From: a virus
Lineage: Duplodnaviria; Caudoviricetes
IMG/VR virus record: IMGVR_UViG_3300044723_010613
Coordinates: 1-59,227 of that record
Reading direction: 5' to 3' (one strand)
DNA: 59,227 nucleotides
A model generated the notes under the pieces. The model had not been told where the DNA came from. It searched no databases and saw nothing but the letters and a program-made list of their open reading frames with translations. The position numbers were made by a program, and so were the translations under genes. This document shows positions 20,925 through 51,848 of this stretch, one piece after another; within the stretch, counting starts at the first letter, position 1; each line of letters opens with the position of its first letter.

Positions 20925-23900
20925 ATGGCTAGGGATCAAATAGAAGTCGATTTATTATTAAACGCTAAGAAAGCGGAAGCCACGATTAAGCAGATGAATC
21001 GTGAGCTAAGTAAAATGGGTAAAACCATGGGACAAGCTTTCTCTGGCGCTGGTGGTGGTGCGGGTAACAAAGTTAGAGCCCTCGGCACCGGTCTGTCCAA
21101 AGCTACAGTTCGCGCAGACGAATTCAGCAAATCCCTAGAAGCTTCCAATGCTCGTGTTATAGCTTTCGGCGCTTCAGCAGGATTAATCATGAATGTCGAC
21201 AGAGCTATGCGAGCTATGGTTAAAACTACCATTCAGGTGGAAAAAGCCATGGCTGACGTAAATGTCGTCATGAATGTTTCCACTAAGCAGCTTGATCAGT
21301 TCGGTAAAGGAATGTTCAAAGTTGCTAAAGATACCGCTCAAGGATTTTCCACAGTTGCAGAAGCTTCTACTGAATTAGCTCGTCAAGGTTTGGGGATGGA
21401 AAAAACCCTAGCTAGAACCAAAGATGCTCTTATCCTGACTCGACTTACAGGAATGAACGCGGCAGATGCTGTGAAATCACTTACTGCTGCTGTAAACTCA
21501 TTTAGTAAAGAAGGAGCAACCTCTGCTCAAGTTGTTAACAGAATGGCAAAGGTTGATGCTCAGTTTGCTGTGAGTTCTGAAGACTTAGCTAATGCAATCT
21601 CTCGAGTTGGAGCTTCTGCTCAATCAGCAGGAGTAAGTATGAATGAGTTGATGGCTATAACCACAGCCGTTCAGCAAAGGACTGCTCGTGGTGGTGCAGT
21701 TATTGGTAACGCATTTAAAACTATATTTACCCGTATTCAGCGTTCTGAAGTCCAACAGAAATTAGAAAATATAGGTGTGGCTACCCGAAACATGAATGGA
21801 GAAATGTTGTCTGGTATTCAAGTCCTGCAAAACTTAGCTAATAATTTTAATAACCTAACTAAATCTCAACAAGCATCTACAGCAGAAAGTGTCGCAGGAG
21901 TATTTCAGGTTAATATTTTAAAATCTGCATTGGCTGATTTGTCCCAACAAAATTCTGCTTATGCTGGGGCTTTAAGAGCAGCAAATACTGCTACTGACGA
22001 AGCTTATCGTAAAAATGAAAAACTTAATCAAACATTAGACTCTTTAGTTAATAAAACCATGGCTAACCTAGTTCAAGCTGGGTCAGCTTTGGGAGGGAAT
22101 ATTTTTGGCCCTGCTATTAGTAATGTTTTAAACACTGTAAATTCTACTATAGAAGCCTTTAGTGAAGGCGGTAAGTTTGAGAGTTTTGGCGAAGGAATAG
22201 GTAAAAATTTAGTTAAAGGTATAGGTAAATTTATAGGTGGTCCCGGTTTAATTATAGCTACTGCAGTGTTTGGTAAATTAGCCTTAAGTTTGGGTAAATT
22301 TGCCACCACAGCTTTTAAAGATATAATGGGTATAAATAACGCTGTTAAACAGAGAGCGGCGTTAGAGGAAATTGTTGTAAACACTTTAGCCAGTGAACCT
22401 GCCCTATTACAAAAAGTTAAAATGGGAACATTAAGTGTTCTCGATGTCGAAAAACAAATACTTGCTACAATAAAGCAGCAGCAAGCTGAAAGAGCTGCGT
22501 TAAAGGGGTATGGAGGAGCTATCGCAGGTTCCTTGTACCAAAGGGGAACTCGCGTTGGCTCTAGCGGTAGAGCCTTTAGTAGAGGTATGGGTAGAATGGG
22601 TAGGGCCTCTGGGTTTGTACCGAATTTTGCTAACCCTAATGTAGAAAGAGCGGCGGCAGCGGCGGGAGGATATACTGCCGGAGCAATCAAAACGATGAAT
22701 CAGCCCGGTGCTGGTACCATGATGTACAACTCTGCGGAAACTGTTAAACAGTTCCCCGGTATGAGTCAAAAGGCTATAATGCCTCCAAAAAATAGTCCCG
22801 CTGGAGCAGGATATAAGTCAGCTTTCGGCGCTGCACATGGTTTTGATCCTTATGCTGCTGAAGGATTTATCCCCAATTTTGCTCCCCGTCTTAGTAAAGA
22901 TCTACTTAGAGCTGGGACTATTAGAAAATCTAGAGCAGGGAGTCGTTTAAATAAAAGATACGATATTCCCGCCAGTAATATTGGGGTTCTGTTAGGTTTT
23001 GGCGCATCTGGGATGGATCAGAAAAAAGATTTTTCCGCAAATGCAAGTTCATTATCAGGTCTATCTAAAACACCTTTAGGAAAAATTTTAACAAAAGAAA
23101 ACGCTAAGATTAATTTAAAAGGAGTAAGGGTAAGAAGTTTTCTTTCAGGTAGTAGCGAGGACAGAGCTGAAAAGCATTTTGAATCAACTCTAAACACTAA
23201 TCTGAAGTCAGGAATAGGTACTCTGTCAAAAAATATAATGTCCCAACTCGGTATAGAGGGCAATCCGGGAAGGATGGGGCGTCTTAGTAAATCCTTACAA
23301 GGAGAGGTGTTTGAAGAATCTATGAGGATGGCTATGAAAGCTGCAGTAGCAATTCCCGGTGCAGCTTTCGATTTCGAGGCAGGCGCTAAACCTTCTGTTG
23401 CGATGTCAAAAATATTTGGTCAGCCAATTCTTCGTATAGATGCGAAAAGAAGACTTTCGTCTGCTGGTGCTGGAGAAATGCCAAAAAAATATTTCAATGA
23501 TCCTGTAACACGAGATATGGGTATGGCAGCAATATCTAGTCAAATGGGAGGTAGAAAACTAAAAGCTCTTGGTTATGTTCCTAATTTTAGCCCTTTGAGC
23601 TCTTCCATTGCTAGAGAAAGACAAGCGGGAATCCCAGCTTCAAAAATTAGAGTAGGATCTAGTCCTGCTTTACGTTCTTCTGGAAATCCTTCTGGTTTAG
23701 GTGTTTATAACACGATAGACGAACCAAGAGGTTTAAATCAGGGCATTAGTAGATCTAGATCGATGGGGATTAATCCTAAGAGTCATGGAGCGGCAGAAGG
23801 ATTTGTACCTAATTTTATGATGGACGTCGGGATAAGAGGCGTAGCTAGCATGGCGCAAAAAAGTGGTATGTTTAGCGGAATGGGTAGCAAGGCAAAGGGG

Positions 23901-26900
23901 CTATACGGAAGCGTCAATAAAAAACTTCAAGGTGGCGGTATGGGACTTGGTTTTGCTGGTATGGGAGCAGGAACCACGCTAATGGGGGCATTCGATAACC
24001 CATTAGGTCGTATAGCAGGATCAGCATTAACAGGGATAGGAGGAGGTCTTCCGGGGGTGCTCGCCATGGGTGGAGTTGGTATCTTGTCTGAAGTATTTAC
24101 TGCTTTAAGTTCTACCAGTGAAGACGCTTCGGAAAAATTAAAAGAACAAATTGCAGCTCAGAAAGAAGCTAACAATACAGCTAAAGAATCTGCTGTGGCT
24201 TTTGGTGAAGTCGCTGAAAGTTTATCAGCGGCTGAGTTTGTAACCCGTAAAGAACAGGTAATTGGGGATTTGTCCAAGGCTTTTCCAAGCATGATAGGAT
24301 CTAAAGAGTATAAAGATTTACTAAAGGCTAATAAAGGTAATTTTGGTCAGGTTAGTTCCGCTTTTACAGAACAGGGAGAAAAAGTTCAAGCTTTTCAAAA
24401 TGTTGCAAACATTTCGAATTTCAAAGGTATGGTGCGTCCACAGTCAGTCGGAGGCGGTGGGATAGACGATGCACTTTACGGAGGTGAAGGGTATCTGAAA
24501 ACAGTTTTAGGTTTGGAATCTGGAGCTGGAAAAACTGCAGCTGATGAACTTACATCTAAATTAGAGGGCACCAAATATTCTCCAGAGGGAGTTATAAGAG
24601 ATGTAGTAAAAAGGGGGAATATTCCTTACGCTGCACAATCTGCTAATTTGGGAACTAGTACAGCTTCAGCAGCGGCTGCTATGGGTATGTCAGTAAAAGA
24701 TTATAAGAACTTTAGGAACCCTGTAGAAACGGGCTTGCAAGAACTAGTTAAAGAGGAAGGTGGACTTGAAAAAAGAAACGCAGCTTTAACTGAGTTTAAT
24801 AATAGAATTATAACTCTTTATACGAATGGAGAAATATTATCAAAAGTTCAAGAAGAAGAAGCGAAGCGTCAAAAACAAATAAATGACCAAAAAGGTAAAG
24901 AAAGCCTAGCTCAGTCCGAATACACAAATGTGATCTATGAAGCCATGAAAGCTCAAGCAGAGTACAGAGATAGTGTTTTCGAACTTCAAAGACAATTAGA
25001 TACATTTAAAAGATCTTCAGCTCAAGAGCTCGCAATACTTGGGATAGAGGGTAATTTAAGAACTGGAAGAGCTGGAGCTACGATGACGCAAGCCGGCGCA
25101 GTTGGAGTTAGTAGAGATATAACTATTGAAAGAGCAGAAAAAATTAGTAAAGATGCTGCGGATATAGCCGCGAAAACTTTAGAGATAGATATTAAATCCG
25201 GATTAAAAGATCTTGATGTAGTAAAATTTATTGAAGGCCAAACGTTGGGAGCTCCTGAAGCTAAACGAGCTTTGGATATTTTTACTCAAGCTAGGGAAAG
25301 TATAAAAACTGGAGTAGATGGAAAATCTGCGACAGATGATTTATTAGAGCAGTTAGCTTCCGTTAAAGGGTTGGATTTGTCCGATAGAGTCTTTCAATCT
25401 AGTACTGAAGAGGGTCTTAAAACTTTTTTAGCTTCAGAAAATTTACCGTCAATAATAAATACCCTAAGTACAGCTTACGAAAAACATCAGAGAACTACAG
25501 AGGCAGCTACAGAGACAGAAACCAATGCAATAGCTCTAGCGAAAAAACAATATGAAGTACAGCTAGAGCTACTAAAATTACAGCGCACAATCAATACAGC
25601 TCGGCGTCAAGAAATGCGCGAAATACAAGCTGATATTGCGTCAGCAGAATTTCAAGAAGCAAAAAGATTAGCCGCTACAGGTCAGTTAGGAGCACGAGGA
25701 GTCGGTAGTGCTTATGAAGCTAGTATAAATGCTCAAATAGCTGCGGGTGGAGTAAGATCAGTTAATTTTGGCGGTGTTATGGGTCAAACATTTAAAAATG
25801 AAATGTCTTATGGTGGCGTAGACGCTTTTGAGGACTTCAGAACTGGCGTTAAAGATGTAGCAGGCACAATGAAATCATCTTTTGCCGATGCTTTTCAATC
25901 CATATCAAGCGGCGCTACAACCGTACAAGGAGCTTTAGCTAACATGGCTCAAAGTATTCTGAGCTCGATAAACCAAATGTCCACCCAAATATTTACGAAC
26001 ATGATGTTTTCAAAAATGTTTGGAAATAATTCTCCGGGAAATTTTGCTAAAGGTGGATATGTTCCCGGTTATGCTACCGGAGGTTTAGTAACAGGTGGAT
26101 CTGGCTACAAAGATGACGTATTGACTAAAATGCAAGGCGGAGAATTTGTTATTAAAAAATCTGCTGTCAACAGAATCGGAATAGGCAAACTAAATGCAAT
26201 AAATGGCTATGCAAATGGCGGCTCTACAGGGCCTAGTATGGGTACCATGGGTCTTGTAGCAGGAGTAAGTGGCGCAGCAACTGGGATACTCGGCGCAGCG
26301 ATGCAGGATCGTCCTGATAAACCTTTACCTTCCAGAAACTATGGAATGGGAAGAGGTAGTTTAGGTTATTTAGGTGGAGCAGATCCTGATGGTGGTCAGA
26401 TTGATAGAGCTTCAGGCGGTGGAACTTCAGCTAACGTTTCATTGTCTAAAGGTTTTGTATATTATAGAAGAGACCCAGAGACTGGAAGATTAGTAAGTGA
26501 AAGAGCAAGACCTACTGAAGGAAGATTTGAAGTAAGCAGTGCTTTATCACTAATGGGAAGACTTGACGAAGGCGATCCTCAGACATCAAGGATGTTTGAT
26601 AAGGAGCAGAGAATTGCCAATTATCAAAACTATATAGCTGGAGAAAAAGCAAGTAGAAGAGCTCAAATACAAGCTGTTAAAGATCAGAAAAGATCTCGAT
26701 TAATTGGAGCTTACATGAATGCTGCCATGTTGATTGGTGGAGCTAAACTTTTTGGAGGTGGAGCTGGTACTGCTGGGGAAGATTATGGAGGAGTTGACCC
26801 CGGAGGTGAATTGACCGCTGGTGGTGGATCGTTTAACTCTCTTGATCCCGGTAATGAACTGGGTGGTAACGCTAATGGAGGTTTAGCTAAAGTTATGGGC

Positions 26901-27278
26901 GGCGAATATGTCATGAGCCCACAAGCTGTTCGTACTCACGGTGTAGATTTCATGACAGAACTTAATCGCGGAAATGTTCCTCGTTACGCTTCTGGCGGTT
27001 TAGTTGGTAACCAAACTGGCGGGGTAGCTACCGGCGGTTCAGGATCAGCCATGAGTGGGAACATGACTAATAATGTTAAGATTAATGTTAACATCGATAA
27101 AAGTGGAAAAGCAGAAGCTAGTGCCACTGCCGGTTCCCAGAGTGGTTTAGAGTCATCGAGAGAAGAAAGTGAAGACATTCAGAACAATGCAGATCTAGGA
27201 AAAGCTCTTCAAAGTGTTGTACTCGATGAACTTATAAAACAACAAAGACCGGGAGGCTTGTTACATTCCCAGAGTTAA
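20925..27278 (+). CDS. Tape measure protein (TP901-family core) with extra modules
   Basis: 2117 aa; ELARQG..GNAFKTIFTR..AG core; Ala/Gly-rich helices; C-term F/YAxGG and GGE[FY]V motifs. Confidence 0.9.
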   Translation: MARDQIEVDLLLNAKKAEATIKQMNRELSKMGKTMGQAFSGAGGGAGNKVRALGTGLSKATVRADEFSKSLEASNARVIAFGASAGLIMNVDRAMRAMVKTTIQVEKAMADVNVVMNVSTKQLDQFGKGMFKVAKDTAQGFSTVAEASTELARQGLGMEKTLARTKDALILTRLTGMNAADAVKSLTAAVNSFSKEGATSAQVVNRMAKVDAQFAVSSEDLANAISRVGASAQSAGVSMNELMAITTAVQQRTARGGAVIGNAFKTIFTRIQRSEVQQKLENIGVATRNMNGEMLSGIQVLQNLANNFNNLTKSQQASTAESVAGVFQVNILKSALADLSQQNSAYAGALRAANTATDEAYRKNEKLNQTLDSLVNKTMANLVQAGSALGGNIFGPAISNVLNTVNSTIEAFSEGGKFESFGEGIGKNLVKGIGKFIGGPGLIIATAVFGKLALSLGKFATTAFKDIMGINNAVKQRAALEEIVVNTLASEPALLQKVKMGTLSVLDVEKQILATIKQQQAERAALKGYGGAIAGSLYQRGTRVGSSGRAFSRGMGRMGRASGFVPNFANPNVERAAAAAGGYTAGAIKTMNQPGAGTMMYNSAETVKQFPGMSQKAIMPPKNSPAGAGYKSAFGAAHGFDPYAAEGFIPNFAPRLSKDLLRAGTIRKSRAGSRLNKRYDIPASNIGVLLGFGASGMDQKKDFSANASSLSGLSKTPLGKILTKENAKINLKGVRVRSFLSGSSEDRAEKHFESTLNTNLKSGIGTLSKNIMSQLGIEGNPGRMGRLSKSLQGEVFEESMRMAMKAAVAIPGAAFDFEAGAKPSVAMSKIFGQPILRIDAKRRLSSAGAGEMPKKYFNDPVTRDMGMAAISSQMGGRKLKALGYVPNFSPLSSSIARERQAGIPASKIRVGSSPALRSSGNPSGLGVYNTIDEPRGLNQGISRSRSMGINPKSHGAAEGFVPNFMMDVGIRGVASMAQKSGMFSGMGSKAKGLYGSVNKKLQGGGMGLGFAGMGAGTTLMGAFDNPLGRIAGSALTGIGGGLPGVLAMGGVGILSEVFTALSSTSEDASEKLKEQIAAQKEANNTAKESAVAFGEVAESLSAAEFVTRKEQVIGDLSKAFPSMIGSKEYKDLLKANKGNFGQVSSAFTEQGEKVQAFQNVANISNFKGMVRPQSVGGGGIDDALYGGEGYLKTVLGLESGAGKTAADELTSKLEGTKYSPEGVIRDVVKRGNIPYAAQSANLGTSTASAAAAMGMSVKDYKNFRNPVETGLQELVKEEGGLEKRNAALTEFNNRIITLYTNGEILSKVQEEEAKRQKQINDQKGKESLAQSEYTNVIYEAMKAQAEYRDSVFELQRQLDTFKRSSAQELAILGIEGNLRTGRAGATMTQAGAVGVSRDITIERAEKISKDAADIAAKTLEIDIKSGLKDLDVVKFIEGQTLGAPEAKRALDIFTQARESIKTGVDGKSATDDLLEQLASVKGLDLSDRVFQSSTEEGLKTFLASENLPSIINTLSTAYEKHQRTTEAATETETNAIALAKKQYEVQLELLKLQRTINTARRQEMREIQADIASAEFQEAKRLAATGQLGARGVGSAYEASINAQIAAGGVRSVNFGGVMGQTFKNEMSYGGVDAFEDFRTGVKDVAGTMKSSFADAFQSISSGATTVQGALANMAQSILSSINQMSTQIFTNMMFSKMFGNNSPGNFAKGGYVPGYATGGLVTGGSGYKDDVLTKMQGGEFVIKKSAVNRIGIGKLNAINGYANGGSTGPSMGTMGLVAGVSGAATGILGAAMQDRPDKPLPSRNYGMGRGSLGYLGGADPDGGQIDRASGGGTSANVSLSKGFVYYRRDPETGRLVSERARPTEGRFEVSSALSLMGRLDEGDPQTSRMFDKEQRIANYQNYIAGEKASRRAQIQAVKDQKRSRLIGAYMNAAMLIGGAKLFGGGAGTAGEDYGGVDPGGELTAGGGSFNSLDPGNELGGNANGGLAKVMGGEYVMSPQAVRTHGVDFMTELNRGNVPRYASGGLVGNQTGGVATGGSGSAMSGNMTNNVKINVNIDKSGKAEASATAGSQSGLESSREESEDIQNNADLGKALQSVVLDELIKQQRPGGLLHSQS
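22611..23816 (+). repeat. Four G[FY][VI]PNF peptide repeats in the TMP
   Basis: GFVPNF 22611-22628, GFIPNF 22863-22880, GYVPNF 23571-23588, GFVPNF 23799-23816. Confidence 0.9.
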
Positions 27279-28156: not shown

Positions 28157-31100
28157 TTACTCTAAATCAACAAGAATACCAAATTTAAATTTTATACCTC
28201 CGGCAGCTACTATAGGTTGCCAAGTGCTGTATAAGTTATATATGGGTTGTTGTTCAAATCTAAGGAAAACTTTGTCATTATGTTTGACAATATGGTAAGG
28301 ATTTATAGTCGCTGTTCCATAAACCGAATTTGACGGAATCCCGGGGTAACCTGTGTCTACAAAAACTGTATACTTATTTTTGTCCAAACTTCTATTAAAC
28401 GTAATTTCAATAAAAAAGTTTGTATCATGAGATATATGACTAGTCCATACCTGAATATTATTTACACCTACCAAATCACCTTTAACTATAGATTTGCAAA
28501 GATTTTTATCATCAGTGTCTTGAGTGTTGATTTCCAATTCTCTATAGTTTACGGATGCTCTATAGTCTGCGGATGAATTGGGAAAGAATACGCTCTTACC
28601 TCTCTCGTTTGGCTGGTCACCCGAAACTCTATTTTTACGGTCCACAATTTTTGTAGCCTCGGTTTCATTATGACAGACTACTAATTCCGCCCAGCAAGCA
28701 AATGTCATTGATTTAAAGGCCGCTGAGACAGCACTAAACTCTCTCAACCTAAAAGAGGTTCCTAAAGGCTCTAAAAACGCTATACCATCTCTAGTACTAA
28801 ATGGGTTTGAGAAATTATACTCTACGTTTCTATTAGGTAAAGTGGAGAAGTTTAACGTATGATCGCTGAATATTCTTGGAGACTCTTGATTTGTTGTAGA
28901 GACATCATACTTAGGGCTATCATTTTCATCTGTAATAAAAGCCCTACGTAAAGATAAGCTGTCAAAAAGTGCAATGGCTATATTTATATTAGTAACTTTA
29001 GGATTATTAATCATCGAAAATGGAATTTTAAATCCATCTATGCCTTCATTAGCGCTGAATACATGATAACCTCTGTGAACCCTAGGCCCTACATAATTCG
29101 GTTTAGGGGTAGTACCGTCTGGCATAAATTTTTGATGATTTGCATATCCTGCATCTAAAAGAACGACTTTGTCAAAAGCAAAACCCTTACCATCTACCGC
29201 GTCAACACTACTACTTCTATTGTTGTTTATATTTTCATTTGATTTAATGTTATACGCTCCATGCTTGTCCTGAGTGTTAATACTTAGCTTAAAATTTGGA
29301 GCAAGATTTGAATACTGATCGTTATCATTTCTACTGTTATCTCCAGTGGTATAATAATATACAACACCCTCTACATCGTTAAAAAATCGATCCAACTCTT
29401 GATCTGTTAAAGTTCGCTGACCATCTAGTGCTTCGACAGCTTCCAGAGTAACATCTATAGTCCCTTCAGTAAGTAACTTCATTGAAGCCTTGTAAGGGTA
29501 ATTGTGTTCAGCTACCTCATTCATCGTAAAGTATTCATTATCTTTTCCTTCCTCACTACTAGACTGAGAGAAAAATATACCACTAGGAGAATCTATTTTT
29601 ACACCTAGAATATCATAAGTTGAATTGAAGCCATCTGGATTCCAAGATTCTTTTGATGGAGGGCTTTTTATAGTTCCATCAGTATTTAGGATTGGTACAG
29701 TGTTGTCATAAACTTGATTTCCAGCACTCGTTTCCCCTTGCTCGTCTTGTGTTTCTATAACTATGTCAAACTGTCTTAAAGGTAATTCTTCAGACTCCCT
29801 TATCACCATTCCACTAGGCGTGGCTTTATAAAAGGTAGATGATTGGCTAGTACCTTCATATTTGCTGAATCCTCTAGCGTTTAGATTAGTGCTCGTATAA
29901 CTCGCGCTCTTTAAATCATCAATTAAATCCGGATTGTTAATCTCTTCGCCGAAAAGAAAAGTAGGTTTAGTTGAAGGCGACGTATATCCTGTGAACTCAA
30001 AATATATATGACTATCAGGAACATTCGCCGAAGTACTTGTCACACCAAGATCTACAACATTAGAAGGTCTTCTAATCGTGACTCGATAATCTATATTTTG
30101 AACGGTATCAAAATTTAGCTCGTATCTTCCGAAGCCTAAGTTGCCATCATTTCCTATATTTCCGGCCTGCTCTTCTTCGCTCATGTTAAAAATACCTTTT
30201 TGAGAGCTTACTTGCCACTCAAACGTAGGATTGGTATTATCTAACGAGTAACCTCTTACATCACTTGCAGTAGACTGAATAGGGAAACCATCAGAGCCTC
30301 GAGTAGTTAAATTACTAATTGAAAAAGTCTGAACCGGGGCTGTAAATTTATCAGTATCAACTGCTATCTTTCTAAAAAGACCATGACCTATCACTCCAAC
30401 ATTCGAAATTGGGTATACTATAACATAATAGTCATCATTTTCACTTATTAAATTCTCAATTTGAATTTTTGATTTTTGCTGACCTTCTATATTATTGAAA
30501 AATTTAGTATCCTCAGGGGTTATTAATTTAACCTCATTTTGTTTTACAGCGTCATAGGATCCTTTATCGACTATATATGTAACACCTTCAACTGCGGTTA
30601 TTGGAGAACCTTTAGTTGAATCAATCCATTCAGTAGTTATTTTAGGGTCTGTTGTAGGTATAATTATAAAAGAATAACTAATATTATTTATATTATTACT
30701 CTCTCCATAATTTATATCAACACTCTTACCGTCATTAGCTATATTTAGATTATTTTTAAATCCAGCTACAGAAAATTCAGATTTTAAAGTGACTAAATTT
30801 TGCCCTTTGTCTGGGTATGTACCCGGAATACTTGGGGTATCTAATATGACATCTAGTATATCTGAATTTCTTTTACCTGCACTGTCAGCGGGTACTGGGT
30901 CTTGATCAGGATAACTATTAATCCATTCGTCTCTATTGGAAGATTTTGCAGCGTTATTTTTCACCGGGAAGAATAGATCAAGTACGTTATTTTTTGTATA
31001 TGAAGATCCTACCGAATCTACTGATTCATATTTTCCGGTAGAGTAAGCTAAAGCTGAGATAGAGTAAGTAGAGTCTTCATCTTCGGCAATATTTATAATT

Positions 31101-33697
31101 CTATATGCAGATTCATTATTATTTATAAATTCAGGGTCATTGTCGAATAAAGGCTCAACGCTCCAAATAAGATTTTGACCAGAATGGTAGTTACCAGAAT
31201 ATGGAACTGCTTCTGATGACCTTGCTACATTATTATTTGAGTATCCAGTAATAACATAGTCTGCGAAATTTAGTTGATTACCTGTATAAGGTTCTCCTAC
31301 AACAGACCCCTTTGAAACGCCATCAAGATCTTCAATTCTTATACCGCTGTTAAAGTAAATTTTAGTACAAACAGCCGATCCTACGTTTCTCAAATCAGAT
31401 CTAAAAGCACCCGGAGCTCCTGTTATATTTATGACATCAGACCCATTAAAGACGAGATTTTGAATTTGAGTTCTTCTAACTCCTTCGTCTACGTCAACGC
31501 TACTACTAACAGTTTGCTCGTTGTAATCATAGGTCGGGGTCAATAATGAGAATTTGTACTTTTTATCTTTTTTAAAATTTAGAGCCTGATCTATAATTAT
31601 GCTATTTACATTTTCTCTTTGGGTAGTTGTTAATGCAGTTTCAGTTAGCCTGTTAGCATATGTAATATCTGTGCCGCCTTTTATTACAGCATTAGTCCTG
31701 CCGCTATATTTTAATGGATTTCTATAGTTATCATAAATACTAATTACATCACCGGGTCTCAAATAAGCCCCATCCATACCAACACTAAAACTAGCTGTTT
31801 CTGTTTCTTCAGATTCACTGGCTAAAATCCATTTCGCAAATCTCCTTGCTTGTCCTCTACTGGTACACCCAAGAGCTGTCGTTTCTAATTCTCTAATCCC
31901 ATACCTTTTTACATACTCTTCATCCTCCATGTATTCCACCGCAGGTTGGTAGCTATTTCTTTTATCGTTATATCTTACAATAGCTACAGTGTGACGGGCT
32001 TTCTTCGCCGAGCTTGAATAAGTAAAATTACCATCGAGAACATTTGAATTATTAAAACTGTAAATAGCAGATTTGAGTTTGTCTTGAGATGAAAAAATAC
32101 TACCATTACTGTAGTACGCTATACCTCTAAAAATAGAAGATAAATCATTAAGGACTTTAAAAGCTTCTTCTCGGGATGTAATTATATAGTTAATTGTAAA
32201 GCGCGGTTCAAACCCGCCATAAGTGTCATCTACAAGTTCATCACAGTACTTTGCTACATCATAGAGTGCCCATTTATCTATTTGAGACGCATCTATAAAT
32301 TCTCCTAATCCATACCTAGGGTTAGTAATCAAATCATAGAAACACCAAGCGGGATTATCTGTCCAAATCAAATCTTCAGCAAAATTACCGTCCCATTCTA
32401 CAGTAGGGTCTTCATTATTGCGCTGAAAAGTAAAACCATCAGCAGTTCGGTTTAAGTCAGTCTTTGTGTTTGTTTTATCACCTAAGGCTACCCCTTTATA
32501 ATAACTACTAGCGGAAGCGGAGCTATTTCCATAACTTTTTATGAACGGGTTGTAGTTGTTGGGAACTTTTACTTTTAGTAATCTCGCGTCATATGCTCTG
32601 GAAGGTATTCTTTGAAAAGATCTTGCGTCAAATAAAGAATAGACCATGGATGAGTAAGGGTATCTTAATTTTGTTCCATAAACTTCAACAATAGAATCTA
32701 CAAAAGATTGGTTTCTTAAAAAGGAAGTAATAGATTCCGGGGTCGTTCTTACGATCCTAATCCTCCATCCTTCGAAGTTATCTTTATCTTGAAATCCTTT
32801 GTCTGAAAGATCAATGGTAGTGGATCTAATATATCCTTCTTCTATCTTACCTTCTATTATTTCATTTTTAGCAAGCTCCCAAGATTCAGTGGAGAATTGG
32901 GACAATGTATCACTTGTCGTTTTATTTGAGCTGAACCTATCATTGAACATAGGTTGATAAAAAATACTATATTCTATAATGCGAGCTTTTTGGTCTCCAT
33001 AACCTGTCGCTGCTTGTCGTTTTTTGTAAGTTTTTTCGCCGAATTGTAAATTTTCTTGCAATGACGGTACTTTTATTCGAACTATAATTTCATTACATTC
33101 TTTATTAAGTATACTATAAGTCTTTGCGTATTTATCTATTGGAGATTTTGATATTGCATGTTTGGTGTTAGTGGGTGAATCGTCTCCTCCTTTAATTTCA
33201 GGTCCATAAAGTCTCTCTCCTATCGTTCTGTTGATGGAGAGGTCCATTATCCTGCTGGAAGGTACAGCGCCGAAAGTCGGAAGGTTTTCATTTACTTTAG
33301 GTACATCTCCAGAAGGGTTACCTTTTACATAATTTAAGTTAACTGAGGAGAAATTGTAAAATCCGCTGTCATCTACAACAGGCACTTCATTCCAATAAAC
33401 TGACCTTAAAAAACCAAGATCTTTTGCTTGCTGGTCGTCACTGTCTAAGTTTACTCCTGTAGCTGTATAATGAGTGAATTGTACTTTTTGATAACCTGTT
33501 ATATTGTCGTTTCTAGTATAACTATAGTTACCGCTAGTTATTCCTTCGATAGGCCCTTCTGAAATTAAATCTACAACTTCAGCATAAGAGCGAGATGTTA
33601 CGTACTCTGGTACTCCGTCTGAATCTGAGTCTACTCTTACTGCAGCAACATCTATTACTGGATTACGTGCTTTTTTAGGTTTTTTCTTAGATCCCAT
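28157..33697 (-). CDS. Central tail tip / host-specificity protein (lambda gpJ-like)
   Basis: DLISEGPIEG, WTDNPAWCFYDL..RYGLG, IDKWALY..YCDELV..EPRF, GCTSRGQARR, LRPGDVI. Confidence 0.9.
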   Translation of the reverse strand: MGSKKKPKKARNPVIDVAAVRVDSDSDGVPEYVTSRSYAEVVDLISEGPIEGITSGNYSYTRNDNITGYQKVQFTHYTATGVNLDSDDQQAKDLGFLRSVYWNEVPVVDDSGFYNFSSVNLNYVKGNPSGDVPKVNENLPTFGAVPSSRIMDLSINRTIGERLYGPEIKGGDDSPTNTKHAISKSPIDKYAKTYSILNKECNEIIVRIKVPSLQENLQFGEKTYKKRQAATGYGDQKARIIEYSIFYQPMFNDRFSSNKTTSDTLSQFSTESWELAKNEIIEGKIEEGYIRSTTIDLSDKGFQDKDNFEGWRIRIVRTTPESITSFLRNQSFVDSIVEVYGTKLRYPYSSMVYSLFDARSFQRIPSRAYDARLLKVKVPNNYNPFIKSYGNSSASASSYYKGVALGDKTNTKTDLNRTADGFTFQRNNEDPTVEWDGNFAEDLIWTDNPAWCFYDLITNPRYGLGEFIDASQIDKWALYDVAKYCDELVDDTYGGFEPRFTINYIITSREEAFKVLNDLSSIFRGIAYYSNGSIFSSQDKLKSAIYSFNNSNVLDGNFTYSSSAKKARHTVAIVRYNDKRNSYQPAVEYMEDEEYVKRYGIRELETTALGCTSRGQARRFAKWILASESEETETASFSVGMDGAYLRPGDVISIYDNYRNPLKYSGRTNAVIKGGTDITYANRLTETALTTTQRENVNSIIIDQALNFKKDKKYKFSLLTPTYDYNEQTVSSSVDVDEGVRRTQIQNLVFNGSDVINITGAPGAFRSDLRNVGSAVCTKIYFNSGIRIEDLDGVSKGSVVGEPYTGNQLNFADYVITGYSNNNVARSSEAVPYSGNYHSGQNLIWSVEPLFDNDPEFINNNESAYRIINIAEDEDSTYSISALAYSTGKYESVDSVGSSYTKNNVLDLFFPVKNNAAKSSNRDEWINSYPDQDPVPADSAGKRNSDILDVILDTPSIPGTYPDKGQNLVTLKSEFSVAGFKNNLNIANDGKSVDINYGESNNINNISYSFIIIPTTDPKITTEWIDSTKGSPITAVEGVTYIVDKGSYDAVKQNEVKLITPEDTKFFNNIEGQQKSKIQIENLISENDDYYVIVYPISNVGVIGHGLFRKIAVDTDKFTAPVQTFSISNLTTRGSDGFPIQSTASDVRGYSLDNTNPTFEWQVSSQKGIFNMSEEEQAGNIGNDGNLGFGRYELNFDTVQNIDYRVTIRRPSNVVDLGVTSTSANVPDSHIYFEFTGYTSPSTKPTFLFGEEINNPDLIDDLKSASYTSTNLNARGFSKYEGTSQSSTFYKATPSGMVIRESEELPLRQFDIVIETQDEQGETSAGNQVYDNTVPILNTDGTIKSPPSKESWNPDGFNSTYDILGVKIDSPSGIFFSQSSSEEGKDNEYFTMNEVAEHNYPYKASMKLLTEGTIDVTLEAVEALDGQRTLTDQELDRFFNDVEGVVYYYTTGDNSRNDNDQYSNLAPNFKLSINTQDKHGAYNIKSNENINNNRSSSVDAVDGKGFAFDKVVLLDAGYANHQKFMPDGTTPKPNYVGPRVHRGYHVFSANEGIDGFKIPFSMINNPKVTNINIAIALFDSLSLRRAFITDENDSPKYDVSTTNQESPRIFSDHTLNFSTLPNRNVEYNFSNPFSTRDGIAFLEPLGTSFRLREFSAVSAAFKSMTFACWAELVVCHNETEATKIVDRKNRVSGDQPNERGKSVFFPNSSADYRASVNYRELEINTQDTDDKNLCKSIVKGDLVGVNNIQVWTSHISHDTNFFIEITFNRSLDKNKYTVFVDTGYPGIPSNSVYGTATINPYHIVKHNDKVFLRFEQQPIYNLYSTWQPIVAAGGIKFKFGILVDLE

Positions 33698-49632: not shown

Positions 49633-50106
49633 TTACTCTCCCGAGCTACCGAATCCTCCGGTACCTCTTTGTGTGTCGTTTAGTGTTTCCATTTCTGTCC
49701 ATTCTCCTGAATAGCATCGTTCAATAATAAGTTGAGCTATTCTATCCCCCGGTTTAATATCAATTTTGTTTCCTGACCCAAACATTGATTCATAAACCGA
49801 AGGTGTAAGATTATAACCTTCAAAGTTCAGGTTTATCAATAATATTTTTACTTCACCTCTGTAAGTTGAATCAATAACTCCGGCCATCACATCGATACCT
49901 TTTTTGACAGCAAGACCACTACGTGGAGCTATTCTACCATAATAACCTTCAGGAATATCAAGACTGATTCCAGTTGAAATTAATTTTCTTTGACCGGGTT
50001 CTAATGTCACGTACTCTGTAGAAAATAAATCGAAACCAGCATCAGCAGGATTTGCCTGCTCTGGCTTAACGGCTTCTTTCGTGAGTTTTTTATAGCTTAT
50101 CTTCAT
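49633..50106 (-). CDS. dut: Trimeric dUTPase
   Basis: AGFDL, PRSG, GVIDSTYRGEV, GDRIAQL, RGTGGFGSSG. Confidence 0.95.
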   Translation of the reverse strand: MKISYKKLTKEAVKPEQANPADAGFDLFSTEYVTLEPGQRKLISTGISLDIPEGYYGRIAPRSGLAVKKGIDVMAGVIDSTYRGEVKILLINLNFEGYNLTPSVYESMFGSGNKIDIKPGDRIAQLIIERCYSGEWTEMETLNDTQRGTGGFGSSGE

Positions 50107-50126
50107 GTTTTTAATTTCCGTAAGAG

Positions 50127-50154
50127 AGGATACTCATTGAAAATCAAAAGTCAA
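50127..50154 (-). promoter_or_regulatory. sigma70-type promoter for dut
   Basis: TTGACT-N16-TATCCT. Confidence 0.55.
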
Positions 50155-50188
50155 TCTTTTCTTTTTCAAGGAAATAGTAAAAATATGG

Positions 50189-50217
50189 TTGACAAATATA
50201 GACATGTCTCATAAAAG
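50189..50217 (+). promoter_or_regulatory. sigma70-type promoter facing the noncoding island
   Basis: Perfect TTGACA; weak -10 (TAAAAG at 17 nt). Confidence 0.45.
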
Positions 50218-50223
50218 AGCAAA

Positions 50224-50504
50224 CACGTAGCATTTCTGCCTTGTTACGTTAAAAAGGTAGGCAGGTCCGCAATCTTATGTGTCCGGCTCTACTGTGGAGA
50301 CTTGTAACCGGAGGAACCAGCGGTGTTGAACTTAGCTGGGCGAGTAGTATAGGTGATGTCATATGGGTGTAAACTACCACACACCCAAAAAAGGCTAACC
50401 GGGGAGTATTCTCAGGAAAAAGTAAAAGATTGCCGATGTTTTGGAATAAACCGCCAAAAACGGGAAAAGTCTCCGTTTCACTTCGACTTTCTAGGAAAAA
50501 GTTT
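50224..50504 (+). ncRNA. Candidate structured ncRNA of unknown family
   Basis: GC-richer island lacking an ORF of 60 aa or more, with several stems and an 8-bp long-range helix 50269-50276/50426-50433. Confidence 0.5.
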
Positions 50505-50554
50505 ATTATTATTAAAATAAATATAAGTAAGTTTAATAAAGTTTAACTAACAGT

Positions 50555-51148
50555 ATGGAATTTAAGTTTAAAAATATAGGAATATCAGGAGTGGCAGGTG
50601 CAGGTAAGAATACTTTAGCCGAACTTATTGGGCTTTTTTTAACTAGAATGGGTTTACCCGTGGAAGAAAGGGCTTTAGCACATAATTTAAAATCAGAAGT
50701 AAGGTCTACATGTAAAGAACTGTATTCTATTGATCCTTTGACTTGCTCGAGAGATGATAAAGATTTAATAAGGCCAATATTGGTTGCTCACGGAGAAATA
50801 AAAAGAAAATCTTCATTAGGAAGACATTGGACAGGTTTATTAGAAAAAGATTTAGATCGTAATAAAGTAAATATTATTACAGATATTAGGTACAATGAAT
50901 ATCCACAAGACGAGTGTTATTGGTTAAAAAACCAAATAAATGGTATTTTGATCCACGTATCTCGATATCAAGAGGTGGGTGAAGAAAGAGTCTTTGTAAA
51001 ACCTGCAAACATTCATGAGTTACAAAATGACTCCAAGGTAAGAAAAGATTCTGACTATATACTCAATTGGAAAACAGAAAAAGACCAAAATAGACTGGTG
51101 ATTAATTCAAAAAGTTTGTTTAAATGGCTTAAAAAAGTTTATAAATAA
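50555..51148 (+). CDS. Deoxynucleoside monophosphate kinase-like P-loop protein
   Basis: IGISGVAGAGKNT, A..LK, R..L...G, IITDIRY. Confidence 0.75.
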   Translation: MEFKFKNIGISGVAGAGKNTLAELIGLFLTRMGLPVEERALAHNLKSEVRSTCKELYSIDPLTCSRDDKDLIRPILVAHGEIKRKSSLGRHWTGLLEKDLDRNKVNIITDIRYNEYPQDECYWLKNQINGILIHVSRYQEVGEERVFVKPANIHELQNDSKVRKDSDYILNWKTEKDQNRLVINSKSLFKWLKKVYK

Positions 51149-51248
51149 ATTTTTTAAAAATAAAATAGAAGATTTTAGTAAAGTTTCATATAATATTCAT
51201 GCAGACACTTATAGTGTATTACTTTAAGTGTTTAAGGAGTGTGGATTT

Positions 51249-51848
51249 ATGGAAAAAGGAACAAGGGAAAATTTAACGGATAACTGTCTAGTTGAAAGGA
51301 TAAAGAATCAATCTTGTGAGGATAGTTTAATAGAACTGTCTGAGAGACATGCAGGATTATGCTTTAAGATAATGAAACGGTACTCTAAGAGTTTTTCGGT
51401 TAATAACATTAACATTAACGAAAAGCATGCTGAAAAAAATTTAATTATTTGGCATTCAGCAAAGAGTTTTAACACTGAAAAAAATGTTAAATTTTCTACT
51501 TGGTTAGCTAATCAAATTAAATATAACTGTCTTAACGAGTTAAATAAAAAATCAAAAGATCGGTTAGTCACTCTTGAAGAATATATGCTAGACGTCTTAG
51601 ACGAACGTCAAGAGGATAAGGACACAAGAATATTTGAGTATACTGAGAATATCCTTTCTCAGCTAAAAGATCCTAGAGTTCAAAAGATTTTTTCACTTCG
51701 CTACTCCAAAGAAGAAAAAAAACCATCGTGGTCTTCTATTGCTTCCAAAATGAATATGAGTACTCAAACTGCAATAAATCTACATAACAAAGGCTTGTCC
51801 ATGCTTAGAAAAAAAATGGATAGCAAAAAACTTCTGGATAATATTTAA
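51249..51848 (+). CDS. Phage RNA polymerase sigma factor (sigma70 regions 2 and 4)
   Basis: TD..LV..I, SFN..KNVKFSTWL..QIKY..LNE, IF.LRY..SW..IA..M.MS.Q...N HTH; AAGGAG SD before ATG 51249. Confidence 0.85.
   Translation: MEKGTRENLTDNCLVERIKNQSCEDSLIELSERHAGLCFKIMKRYSKSFSVNNININEKHAEKNLIIWHSAKSFNTEKNVKFSTWLANQIKYNCLNELNKKSKDRLVTLEEYMLDVLDERQEDKDTRIFEYTENILSQLKDPRVQKIFSLRYSKEEKKPSWSSIASKMNMSTQTAINLHNKGLSMLRKKMDSKKLLDNI

Follow-up and report, generated by a model that had tools for sequence, protein, structure and literature searches.

The locus

The 59,227-nucleotide (nt) stretch of viral DNA analysed here, referred to throughout as the window, covers positions 1 to 59,227 of the IMG/VR record IMGVR_UViG_3300044723_010613 (Duplodnaviria; Caudoviricetes). 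An intergenic gap of 448 nt in this window (50107-50554) separates a dUTPase gene, dut, from an open reading frame (ORF) for a 197-amino-acid (aa) P-loop protein, and it houses a conserved element of about 284 nt on the plus strand (50224-50507, from its inferred start to the end of an invariant tail). Comparison with relatives makes it almost certain that 50224-50507 specifies a real structured RNA. The dut gene (49633-50106, minus strand; PF00692, E 4e-37) is divergent to the RNA. The P-loop gene (50555-51148, plus strand) is termed deoxynucleoside monophosphate (dNMP) kinase-like from a weak match to phrog_139 (E 1.1e-6), and no Pfam family was assigned to its protein; it is followed by a gene for a sigma factor of the extracytoplasmic function (ECF) type (51228-51848, plus strand). 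An original prediction, made from the letters of the window without database searches, had described the gap as the longest intergenic one and as richer in GC than its flanks. Both descriptions held, as the gap is the longest between ORFs of at least 90 aa and has a GC content of 0.43-0.48, compared with 0.27-0.35 in the flanks.

A conserved RNA family

In blastn alignments, conservation of the gap begins at query position 118, which is 50224 and the very start that the original prediction had chosen; nhmmer places the window copy at 50224-50506. A search of IMG/VR with the kinase-like protein and dut yielded 24 loci, and an exact 22-mer from the invariant 3ʹ part of the RNA was present in 12 IMG/VR contigs, 57 marine metagenome contigs and 2 contigs of metagenome-assembled genomes (MAGs). 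The family as a whole numbers 13 contigs from IMG/VR, together with the same 57 and 2. The main alignment, A2, consists of 46 distinct sequences from 80 full-length copies. An nhmmer profile added one full copy (L038; loci are denoted by L numbers) and two divergent homologues, L021 (E 1e-14) and L022 (E 5e-11); counts out of 49 sequences refer to the 46 main-family sequences together with these three. Loci L037 and L039 matched a shorter pattern only and were not confirmed as members. The pattern AAGAGAACCGGTCGTT, used for further divergent copies, returned 12 stretches that were real only in two known contigs.

By these comparisons, the RNA is more conserved than the proteins encoded beside it. 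The RNA of L024 has 87.8% nucleotide identity to the window copy, against 71% amino-acid identity for dut, and the corresponding figures for L004 are 83% for the RNA and 62% for the kinase. Among GenBank phages, the sole match to the 448-nt gap was a 38-nt AT-rich stretch in a Listeria phage, and a 3.5-kb query retrieved nothing similar.

Of the 86 loci with at least 150 nt of sequence past the RNA, 79 (L021 and L022 included) have a homologue of the kinase-like gene whose start is 12-76 nt (median 42) downstream of the RNA. Upstream, dut is divergent in 67 of the 82 loci that contain the 5ʹ end of the RNA, at a distance of 95-1099 nt, and the larger gaps between dut and the RNA contain a 136-aa ORF that appears deaminase-like from a motif recognised by eye. 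The original prediction had proposed gathering homologues between dut and the kinase gene as a check; the relatives carry the element there, with heavy covariation.

Secondary and tertiary structure

RNAalifold predicted 51 pairs on A2, 22 of them changing on both sides. A structure set by hand, pseudoknots included, was scored on the same alignment and comprises 49 pairs in 9 helices, with 98.3% of 2219 cells able to pair. Changes on both sides were found in 29 of the 49 pairs and in 307 cells, whereas shuffled alignments gave means of 22.3 pairs and 92 cells and none of 500 shuffles reached the observed values. In slid controls, in which the partners were moved by 1-3 columns, there were 0-7 pairs with changes on both sides and 33-42% of cells paired. 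For hairpin H, the pairing termed PK2 and the pairings of L021 and L022, the reading was done by script or by eye instead of on an alignment to a model.

As read from this comparison, the fold, all of it on the plus strand, has an H-type pseudoknot at its 5ʹ end. It also has a long-range closing helix and four hairpins, and another three tertiary pairings add to these. Helix P1 pairs CGTAGCA (50226-50232) with TGTTACG (50242-50248); five of its seven pairs change on both sides and 95.5% of cells are paired. Within the P1 loop, TCTGCCT (50235-50241) pairs with AGGCAGG (50259-50265) to form PK1 (six of seven pairs changing on both sides; 99.7% paired), and P1 and PK1 are joined by an A-rich third loop, TTAAAAAGGT, into the H-type pseudoknot. 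PK1 reads GGCGAAC/GTTCGCC and GGCGAGC/GCTCGC in L021 and L022. The closing helix joins the 5ʹ strand TCCGCAATCT (50266-50275) to the 3ʹ strand AGATTGCCGA (50427-50436); it is 100% paired, with four of nine pairs changing on both sides and the other five invariant, and takes the form GTTCTCT/AGAGAAC in L021 and L022.

Hairpin D (50282-50312) has an outer stem, TCCGG/CCGGA, and an inner stem, TAC/GTA, in which three of five and two of three pairs change on both sides, and it carries the loop GGAGACTT (50296-50303). From this loop, GGAGACUU pairs with the 3ʹ partner AAGTCTCC (AAGUCUCC in the RNA; 50467-50474), forming PK2. The two strands of PK2 are complementary in 49 of 49 sequences, as GGAGAC/GTCTCC in 36, GAAGAC/GTCTTC in 12 and AGAGAC/GTCTCT in 1, and the GAAGAC form occurs in two separate clades of the tree, the L012 group and L081. 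Hairpin E (50317-50339; CCAGC/GCTGG, four of five pairs changing on both sides) has a distal part of variable length. Hairpin F (50365-50386; GGGTGT/ACACCC, three of six pairs changing on both sides) has a loop that pairs twice. Its CTAC (50374-50377) forms PK3 with GTAG (50344-50347), which is invariant in 46 of 46 sequences and replaced by GAGG/CCTC in L021 and L022, and its CAC (50378-50380) forms a loop-junction pairing of 3 base pairs with GTG (50279-50281). The latter pairing is 100% paired, changes on both sides in two of three pairs and covaries as GU/AC, AC/GU and GC/GC.

Between hairpin F and the closing strand lies a purine-rich junction, CCGGGGAGTATTCTCAGGAAAAAG (50400-50422), which is near-invariant in A2 and includes purine motif 1. 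A small GGAG/CTC hairpin that RNAalifold had proposed was rejected, being absent in L021 and L022. Hairpin H (50440-50458; TTTGG/CCAAA) bears an extra inserted hairpin in some lineages. Its alternative stems, identified by eye, are TCGGA/TCCGA, TTGGA/TCCAA, TTTGAT/ATCAAA, TTTGGT/ACCAAA, TTTGA/TCAAA, GTGAA/TTCAC and GTTTTAG/CTAAAAC, and L021 has GTTCCG/CGGAAC. L021 and L022 keep the whole architecture with other letters, CGCGG/CCGCG among them.

The 3ʹ end of the RNA is a block of 48 nt, ACGGGAAAAGTCTCCGTTTCACTTCGACTTTCTAGGAAAAAGTTTATT (50460-50507), that is almost invariant in the 46 sequences and includes purine motif 3 (50491-50506). Within the block, (A)AAAGTC (50465-50471) and GACTTTC (50485-50491) can pair with each other. 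This GAAAGUC:GACUUUC pairing is the minimum-energy fold of the isolated block in L012, L021 and L022, and L021 and L022 have an A-U end pair in place of G-C, together with an additional hairpin within the loop. In the window copy, the first G of GAAAGUC is an A.

The stems of the original prediction lie at the coordinates it gave, and seven of its eight pairings reappear in this fold with comparative support. The stems ctgcct/aggcag (PK1), tccgg/ccgga (outer stem of hairpin D), ccagc/gctgg (hairpin E) and tgggtgt/acaccca (hairpin F) gain support from the changes on both sides counted above, and ttttgg/ccaaaa (hairpin H) covaries by inspection. The long-range helix proposed as gcaatctt/aagattgc survives as gcaatct/agattgc, the closing helix, and the proposed actac/gtagt pseudoknot corresponds to PK3 (GUAG:CUAC, or GAGG:CCUC in L021 and L022). 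The stem aaacgg/ccgttt is the exception, as its changes are one-sided only, it competes with two covarying pairings and it overlaps the D-loop pairing. Four pairings go beyond that earlier list, namely CGTAGCA/TGTTACG, the D loop with the 3ʹ strand, the loop-junction pairing and GAAAGUC:GACUUUC.

A separate regularity concerns four runs of G, at 50403-50406, 50415-50416, 50462-50464 and 50494-50495 in the window, that change length in concert. Their lengths are 4,3,4,3 in the main family, 4,2,3,2 in the clade of the window, 3,3,3,3 in L021 and 3,2,3,2 in L022. Runs 2 and 4 are of equal length in 49 of 49 sequences, and the motifs surrounding them, CAGGGAAAAG and TAGGGAAAAG, are alike in every lineage. 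Base-pairing does not explain these concerted lengths.

Promoter and transcription

Upstream of the RNA is a sigma-70-type promoter (50190-50218, plus strand) with TTGACA at 50190-50195, a spacer of 17 nt and TAAAAG at 50213-50218. The original prediction had recognised the TTGACA motif correctly but placed it one position too early, at 50189. From this promoter, transcription would start at about 50224-50226, 3-5 nt before P1. The strict pattern TTGAC[N]-N16-19-T[AT]N[AT][AT]N is found in 38 of 49 sequences. All 44 sequences in a phage context have a promoter, 38 of them in strict form and 6 with TTGAC and a weaker -10 box, and in these sequences the elements are TTGAC[A/T], a spacer of 16-17 nt whose sequence varies, and TAnnnn, at a fixed distance to the RNA. 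The 5 copies outside a phage context lack this pattern. Farther upstream, at 50134-50182 in the window and at the corresponding place in relatives, is a conserved TTTTCAAAAATCT block, some 45-60 nt from the -35 box; read on the minus strand, its TTGAAA is probably the -35 box of a divergent dut promoter.

The element is present in marine metatranscriptome runs from two studies. A contig of 265 nt covers 50197-50461 with zero differences to the window, another of 488 nt covers 50265-50752 and bridges the RNA and the kinase gene, and one of 1542 nt reaches from dut to the kinase gene. Metatranscriptome mapping had been suggested with the original prediction, and these marine contigs do cover the element; as assembled contigs they are weak evidence that speaks to its presence and to one bridge, not to ends, strand or level.

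Between the tail of the RNA and the start codon of the kinase gene is an AT-rich spacer of 28-75 nt. No terminator-like site was found on the plus strand between the RNA and the kinase gene, and no conserved pairing was found in the spacer. Pairing of the tail with the translation start region, hinted at by an inverted repeat of the window (I7), was rejected because it is not conserved in relatives. The tail was also considered as a general phage promoter and discarded, as the 3 matches to ACTTTCTAGRGAAA (at most 2 mismatches allowed) compare with 2.66 expected and the 3 to AGGRAAAAG with 2.84 expected.

Comparison with known RNAs and coding potential

The original prediction had recognised no hallmark of a transfer RNA (tRNA), transfer-messenger RNA (tmRNA), RNase P or signal recognition particle (SRP) RNA here, and had called for a comparison with Rfam. 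ARAGORN found no tRNA or tmRNA genes in the window, and the whole window gave no Rfam 15 matches at the gathering threshold. With the limit relaxed to E≤10, the region 50050-50620 gave 7 weak chance matches to small nucleolar RNAs, microRNAs and long noncoding RNAs only, and the sole match over the conserved core was 24 nt of RMST_1 (E 7.3). Five island or thyA loci, described below, gave no Rfam matches at E≤1, and in the divergent L021 and L022 nothing matched on the element. A full-text literature search found no description of the RNA. A 2023 survey of IMG/VR intergenic regions (PMC10690425) reported candidate structured RNAs that likewise show covariation; they are 29-151 nt long (mean 67), compared with about 285 nt for the RNA described here. 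The available main text of that survey mentions neither dUTPase nor a kinase, and its supplementary tables may list fragments.

In these comparisons the RNA has no match among described families; it is a new family. The promoter, the negative Rfam results, the covariation and the metatranscriptome contigs all favour the earlier suggestion of a novel promoter-driven phage noncoding RNA or long leader.

The window copy contains ORFs of 31-55 aa. The two on the plus strand are open in only 6 and 10 of the 46 sequences, and in 31 and 33 of the 46 the length differs by a number not divisible by 3. On the aligned sequences, there is no conserved ORF in the RNA and a coding function is rejected.

A proposed cis-acting leader switch

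The most likely interpretation is that the RNA is a cis-acting conformational switch in the leader of an early rightward operon. This reading is held tentatively, at a probability of roughly 0.45, and the next most likely is an autonomous stable RNA. Host RNA polymerase would transcribe the RNA from the TTGACA-N17-TAAAAG promoter as the 5ʹ leader of an operon that contains the dNMP-kinase-like gene, the gene for the ECF-type sigma factor and others. Loop-junction pairings would tie hairpins D, E and F, the closing helix and the H-type pseudoknot into a folded core, which would either hold the 3ʹ strand AAGUCUCC through the D loop (PK2) or release it. On release, GAAAGUC could pair with the downstream GACUUUC, which would alter the invariant tail and the AU-rich leader before the start of the kinase gene. 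Candidate signals that might bias such a switch are a metabolite of the nucleotide pool, an ion, or a phage or host protein.

A switch is proposed because GAAAGUC:GACUUUC shares AAGUC with PK2, and both pairings cannot form fully. Each of the two competing 3ʹ pairings has comparative support, and such overlapping constraints would yield an invariant block of 48 nt amid stems that vary. Moreover, as expected of a riboswitch, a conserved fold is positioned upstream of the kinase homologue, within 12-76 nt of it in 79 of 86 loci. The position of a leader is further favoured by the promoter kept in all 44 phage-context sequences, by the lack of a terminator-like site before the kinase gene and by the metatranscriptome contig that bridges into that gene, and the different RNA in the same slot of sister phages (described below) also counts for this reading. 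The RNA resembles pseudoknotted leaders and riboswitches, such as the T4 gene 32 leader and T-box leaders, in having a promoter directly upstream and a gene directly downstream, in the succession of a structured domain and an AU-rich unstructured stretch, and in its competing 3ʹ pairings and nucleotide-metabolism setting. It differs from them in matching no riboswitch or leader in Rfam, in being much larger and more knotted, in offering no definable terminator or hairpin that sequesters a ribosome-binding site, and in occurring also away from any regulated gene. The RNA is common in marine viral and metagenome data (70 contigs in one exact 22-mer scan). At the head of an operon with a sigma factor gene, it might govern how infection begins in a group of phages not yet cultured.

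Several observations weigh against a leader switch. Some concern the strength of the structural signal. Folding of the single window sequence is at chance level relative to shuffles (z -0.77 on the plus strand and -0.35 on the minus strand), so the window alone cannot show stems beyond chance, and further pair types number 49, which is under every shuffle (mean 56.8). Others concern the mechanism. No expression platform could be defined in the spacer, which shows no conserved pairing, and in the main family there is no intrinsic terminator and no Shine-Dalgarno sequence to hide. A static stacked form would also fit the 3ʹ end, since the two covarying pairs of PK2 lie outside the overlap, and a size of about 285 nt with four tertiary pairings exceeds most riboswitches. 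The transcripts are ambiguous as well: two metatranscriptome contigs begin upstream of the inferred start (at 50180 and 50197), and DNA carry-over is possible because of these starts and of the contig that spans dut to the kinase gene. Finally, seven loci with 4 distinct RNAs (L049, L054, L058 and L063) and about 49% GC have no dut or kinase gene, one kinase-less locus has a convergent gene downstream of the RNA, and in L059 the RNA (763-1056) interrupts the thymidylate synthase gene thyA at a codon boundary, after K150 (...SENVANGK) and before AALPPCH. The kinase-less and thyA copies mean that the module persists where regulation of the kinase is impossible.

Bacterial copies and a possible autonomous RNA

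The kinase-less copies bear on the second interpretation, in which the RNA would be a stable molecule that acts in trans as a scaffold, decoy or ribozyme, is processed from the early transcript, and has the kinase gene only as a syntenic neighbour. This is possible, though less so than a leader switch. The two MAG contigs are ordinary chromosome, one encoding ThiC and LpxI and the other PhoU and Pst proteins, and the small island in which the RNA lies encodes a PF00239 resolvase, a zinc-ribbon protein and a conserved ORF of 80 aa. The RNA is present in islands that lack the kinase gene, beside the resolvase and the 80-aa ORF, and the island copies still differ from one another by compensated changes. 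Furthermore, the size of the RNA, its H-type pseudoknot and its three tertiary pairings resemble large ornate RNAs, not small aptamers. Purine motifs 1 and 3 change together in each lineage (GGGAAAAG, GGAAAAAG, AAAGGGAAG and AGGAAAG), as would two sites with one partner. In the sister phages L014, L017 and L018, the slot holds a different RNA (described below) whose terminator-like end hairpin is what one would expect of an RNA gene in its own right.

These points are offset by the main family itself, which has no terminator or mapped 3ʹ end, lies at a short, fixed distance from the kinase gene in 79 of 86 loci and includes one metatranscriptome contig that bridges into that gene. No partner protein was identified for the RNA; the 80-aa ORF of the islands has no homologue in the phage loci, belongs to no known family and received no defence or NCBIfam name. 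The island copies, moreover, may be recent transfers. They form one clade with the phage copy L083, which is 96.3% identical to L049, and this clade is nested in phage diversity. Their 3ʹ extension of about 130 nt is found also in L088, a contig with a phage context, and among 301 genomes of the order of the MAG, the element is present in 1, the MAG itself.

To our knowledge, few large RNAs have conserved tertiary pairing on this scale. Those that are known have proved to be ribozymes, riboswitches or RNA-protein machines, so that any further class may bring new RNA biochemistry. GOLLD, ROOL, raiA and HEARO (omega) RNAs, large ornate RNAs that comparative genomics has revealed, often in phages, are similarly long and highly conserved, with many covarying helices and pseudoknots, and they too occur in phage or mobile DNA; the RNA described here has no Rfam match to any of them. 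It is shorter (about 285 nt) than GOLLD and ROOL and, in phages, has a fixed gene partner. The omega RNA family was considered because the island copies carry a 5ʹ flank of 21-24 nt derived from thyA. Unlike HEARO or omega RNAs, however, this RNA has no adjacent gene for a nuclease of the IscB, IsrB or TnpB type and no 5ʹ guide segment in phages, where the first stem is preceded by only 3-5 nt. A guide RNA of this type was rejected, as the neighbours are dut, the kinase-like gene and the sigma factor in phages, and the resolvase, the 80-aa ORF and a leucine-rich repeat (LRR) protein in islands.

The gene order of the islands was recorded at about 19700-23096 of contig G001:C414 (L101 and L102) and in L095, where a 213-aa resolvase, a 149-aa zinc-ribbon protein, the 80-aa ORF, the RNA and an LRR protein of the BspA type follow one another. 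In L095 and L054, more conserved noncoding sequence follows the RNA.

A copy within thyA and a possible mobile element

The copy that interrupts thyA raises a third interpretation, namely that the RNA is an intron-like or self-processing element that lacks an ORF and moves, its phage copies being domesticated and its bacterial copies footprints of movement. In L059, the thyA reading frame (328-762) is 94% identical, over 99% of 145 aa, to 274-aa ThyA proteins of the Flavobacteriaceae. The exon ends ...AACGGCAAA, where intact ThyA continues Ala-Ala-Leu-Pro-Pro-Cys, so that the insertion sits directly before AALPPCH. Three island copies, L049, L058 (352-375) and L063, retain the last 21-24 nt of the thyA exon (AAAAYGTTGCTAACGNCAAAG) before the RNA, with the same junction as L059; the flank in L049 consists of the NVANGK codons, and that in L054 is more diverged. 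The recurrence of one junction in two different settings suggests that the cassette is mobile, whether as an intron-like element or otherwise. In addition, conserved catalytic sites of nucleotide-metabolism genes are classic targets of introns, for example in T4 td.

This evidence is countered on several fronts. L059 is a single contig of 1078 nt with about 2x coverage that ends 33 nt past the RNA, and the 5ʹ end of its thyA looks frameshifted. A tblastn search for thyA across all loci found it in L059 only, the thyA flank pattern had no matches in viral contigs, no candidate protein with the read-through peptide of the L059 junction was found, and no relic of a second exon was found downstream of any island copy. 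Exons are absent from the phage copies, which begin at a promoter.

The established intron classes do not accommodate the RNA either. In group I introns the helices follow the order P3-[P4-P6]-P7-P3ʹ-P8-P7ʹ, with the strands of P7 flanking P3ʹ and P8, and the 5ʹ exon ends in U, which forms a U.G pair in P1, with exons on both sides. Group II introns begin with GUGYG, contain a domain V and span several hundred to thousands of nt. Here the order of helices does not fit group I, as the strand after hairpin H (50467-50474) pairs with the D loop and not beside the 3ʹ side of the closing helix. Nor do the ends agree with group I, as the exon in L059 ends ...GGCAAA, the phage copies begin at a promoter and no second exon was found. 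The 5ʹ junction has neither a U before it nor GUGYG after it, the sequence past the junction being GAGGUAGCA, and there was no match to Intron_gpI or to any group II model in Rfam at E≤1. The likeness to group I introns in thymidylate synthase genes such as T4 td is therefore one of setting and form, in that thyA is interrupted at a codon boundary by its catalytic motif and the RNA is ORF-less, pseudoknotted and a few hundred bases long, while helix order, splice-site rules, Rfam models and the promoter-driven, exon-less phage copies set it apart.

What would be left is a new mobile, ORF-less ribozyme, self-splicing or self-processing, that is neither group I nor group II and was co-opted by marine phages as an early-operon leader. 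Both this and the broader idea of an intron-like element are improbable. Were it correct, the ribozyme would sit inside the essential thyA gene (between K150 and A151, before the catalytic Cys motif) and would carry bits of its old exon when moving, and the concerted shortening of the four G-runs would reflect a stacked G-rich core. The island and thyA copies make the mobility of the RNA testable with existing metagenome and metatranscriptome reads.

L059 also holds, upstream of its AT-rich thyA, a GC-rich stretch of about 300 nt (1-310) that ends ACTTTCTAGAGAAATATTTG, like the 3ʹ tail of the RNA. This stretch had no Rfam match and no similarity to the other loci.

A possible replication origin, and chance

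The original prediction had offered a replication origin as its alternative. Under this hypothesis a promoter would drive a folded primer transcript, purine runs would stabilise an RNA-DNA hybrid and an AT-rich region would unwind. The layout of the element agrees, with a promoter, a structured RNA and G/A-rich runs (GGGGAAAG and AGGGAAAAG) followed by 30-75 nt of AT-rich DNA, and so does its position at a point of divergent transcription among nucleotide-metabolism genes; the island copy with its resolvase would suit an element that borrows phage replication. A primer of the ColE1 RNA II type is alike in being a promoter-driven structured transcript that ends in purine runs before AT-rich DNA. 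The RNA here differs from it in that neither skew nor repeats give a signal of an origin and the transcript continues into a gene. Specific support for an origin did not emerge. GC skew tracks the direction of transcription, flipping at every change of gene direction in the window and not specially at the RNA, there are no iterons beyond the two purine motifs, no initiator gene is adjacent, the transcript must also express the kinase gene, and the tertiary covariation is more detailed than any known primer needs. An origin is rated as even less probable than a mobile intron. A last pair of readings, that the stems arose by chance in a GC-rich spacer or that a small protein gene was left unannotated, could draw on the poor folding scores (z -0.77 and -0.35) and on the 31-55-aa ORFs of the window copy, and is refuted by covariation far above the controls, the complementarity of PK2 in 49 of 49 sequences and the lack of conservation of those ORFs.

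Sister phages and the remainder of the window

In three sister phages, whose dut proteins are 71-73% identical, a promoter of the kind described above and the kinase gene flank a different structured RNA of 430-540 nt in this slot, on the minus strand of the contigs (L014:2040-2470, L017:2040-2470 and L018:2365-2915). This RNA has 112 predicted pairs, 21 of them compensated, in a comparison of only 3 sequences; a GC-rich hairpin resembling a terminator closes it ahead of the kinase gene, and it has no Rfam match. A second, unrelated large RNA in the same slot provides a natural comparison of two solutions to one task.

Elsewhere in the window, the structural region includes two very large ORFs, at 20925-27278 (2117 aa) and 28157-33697 (1846 aa). 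The majority of the large window proteins tested have no PHROG family, which marks the phage group as poorly characterised. The sigma factor at 51228-51848 has weak subfamily matches of the Verrucomicrobium/Rhodopirellula type and of the Bacteroides type, which are possible hints to the host.

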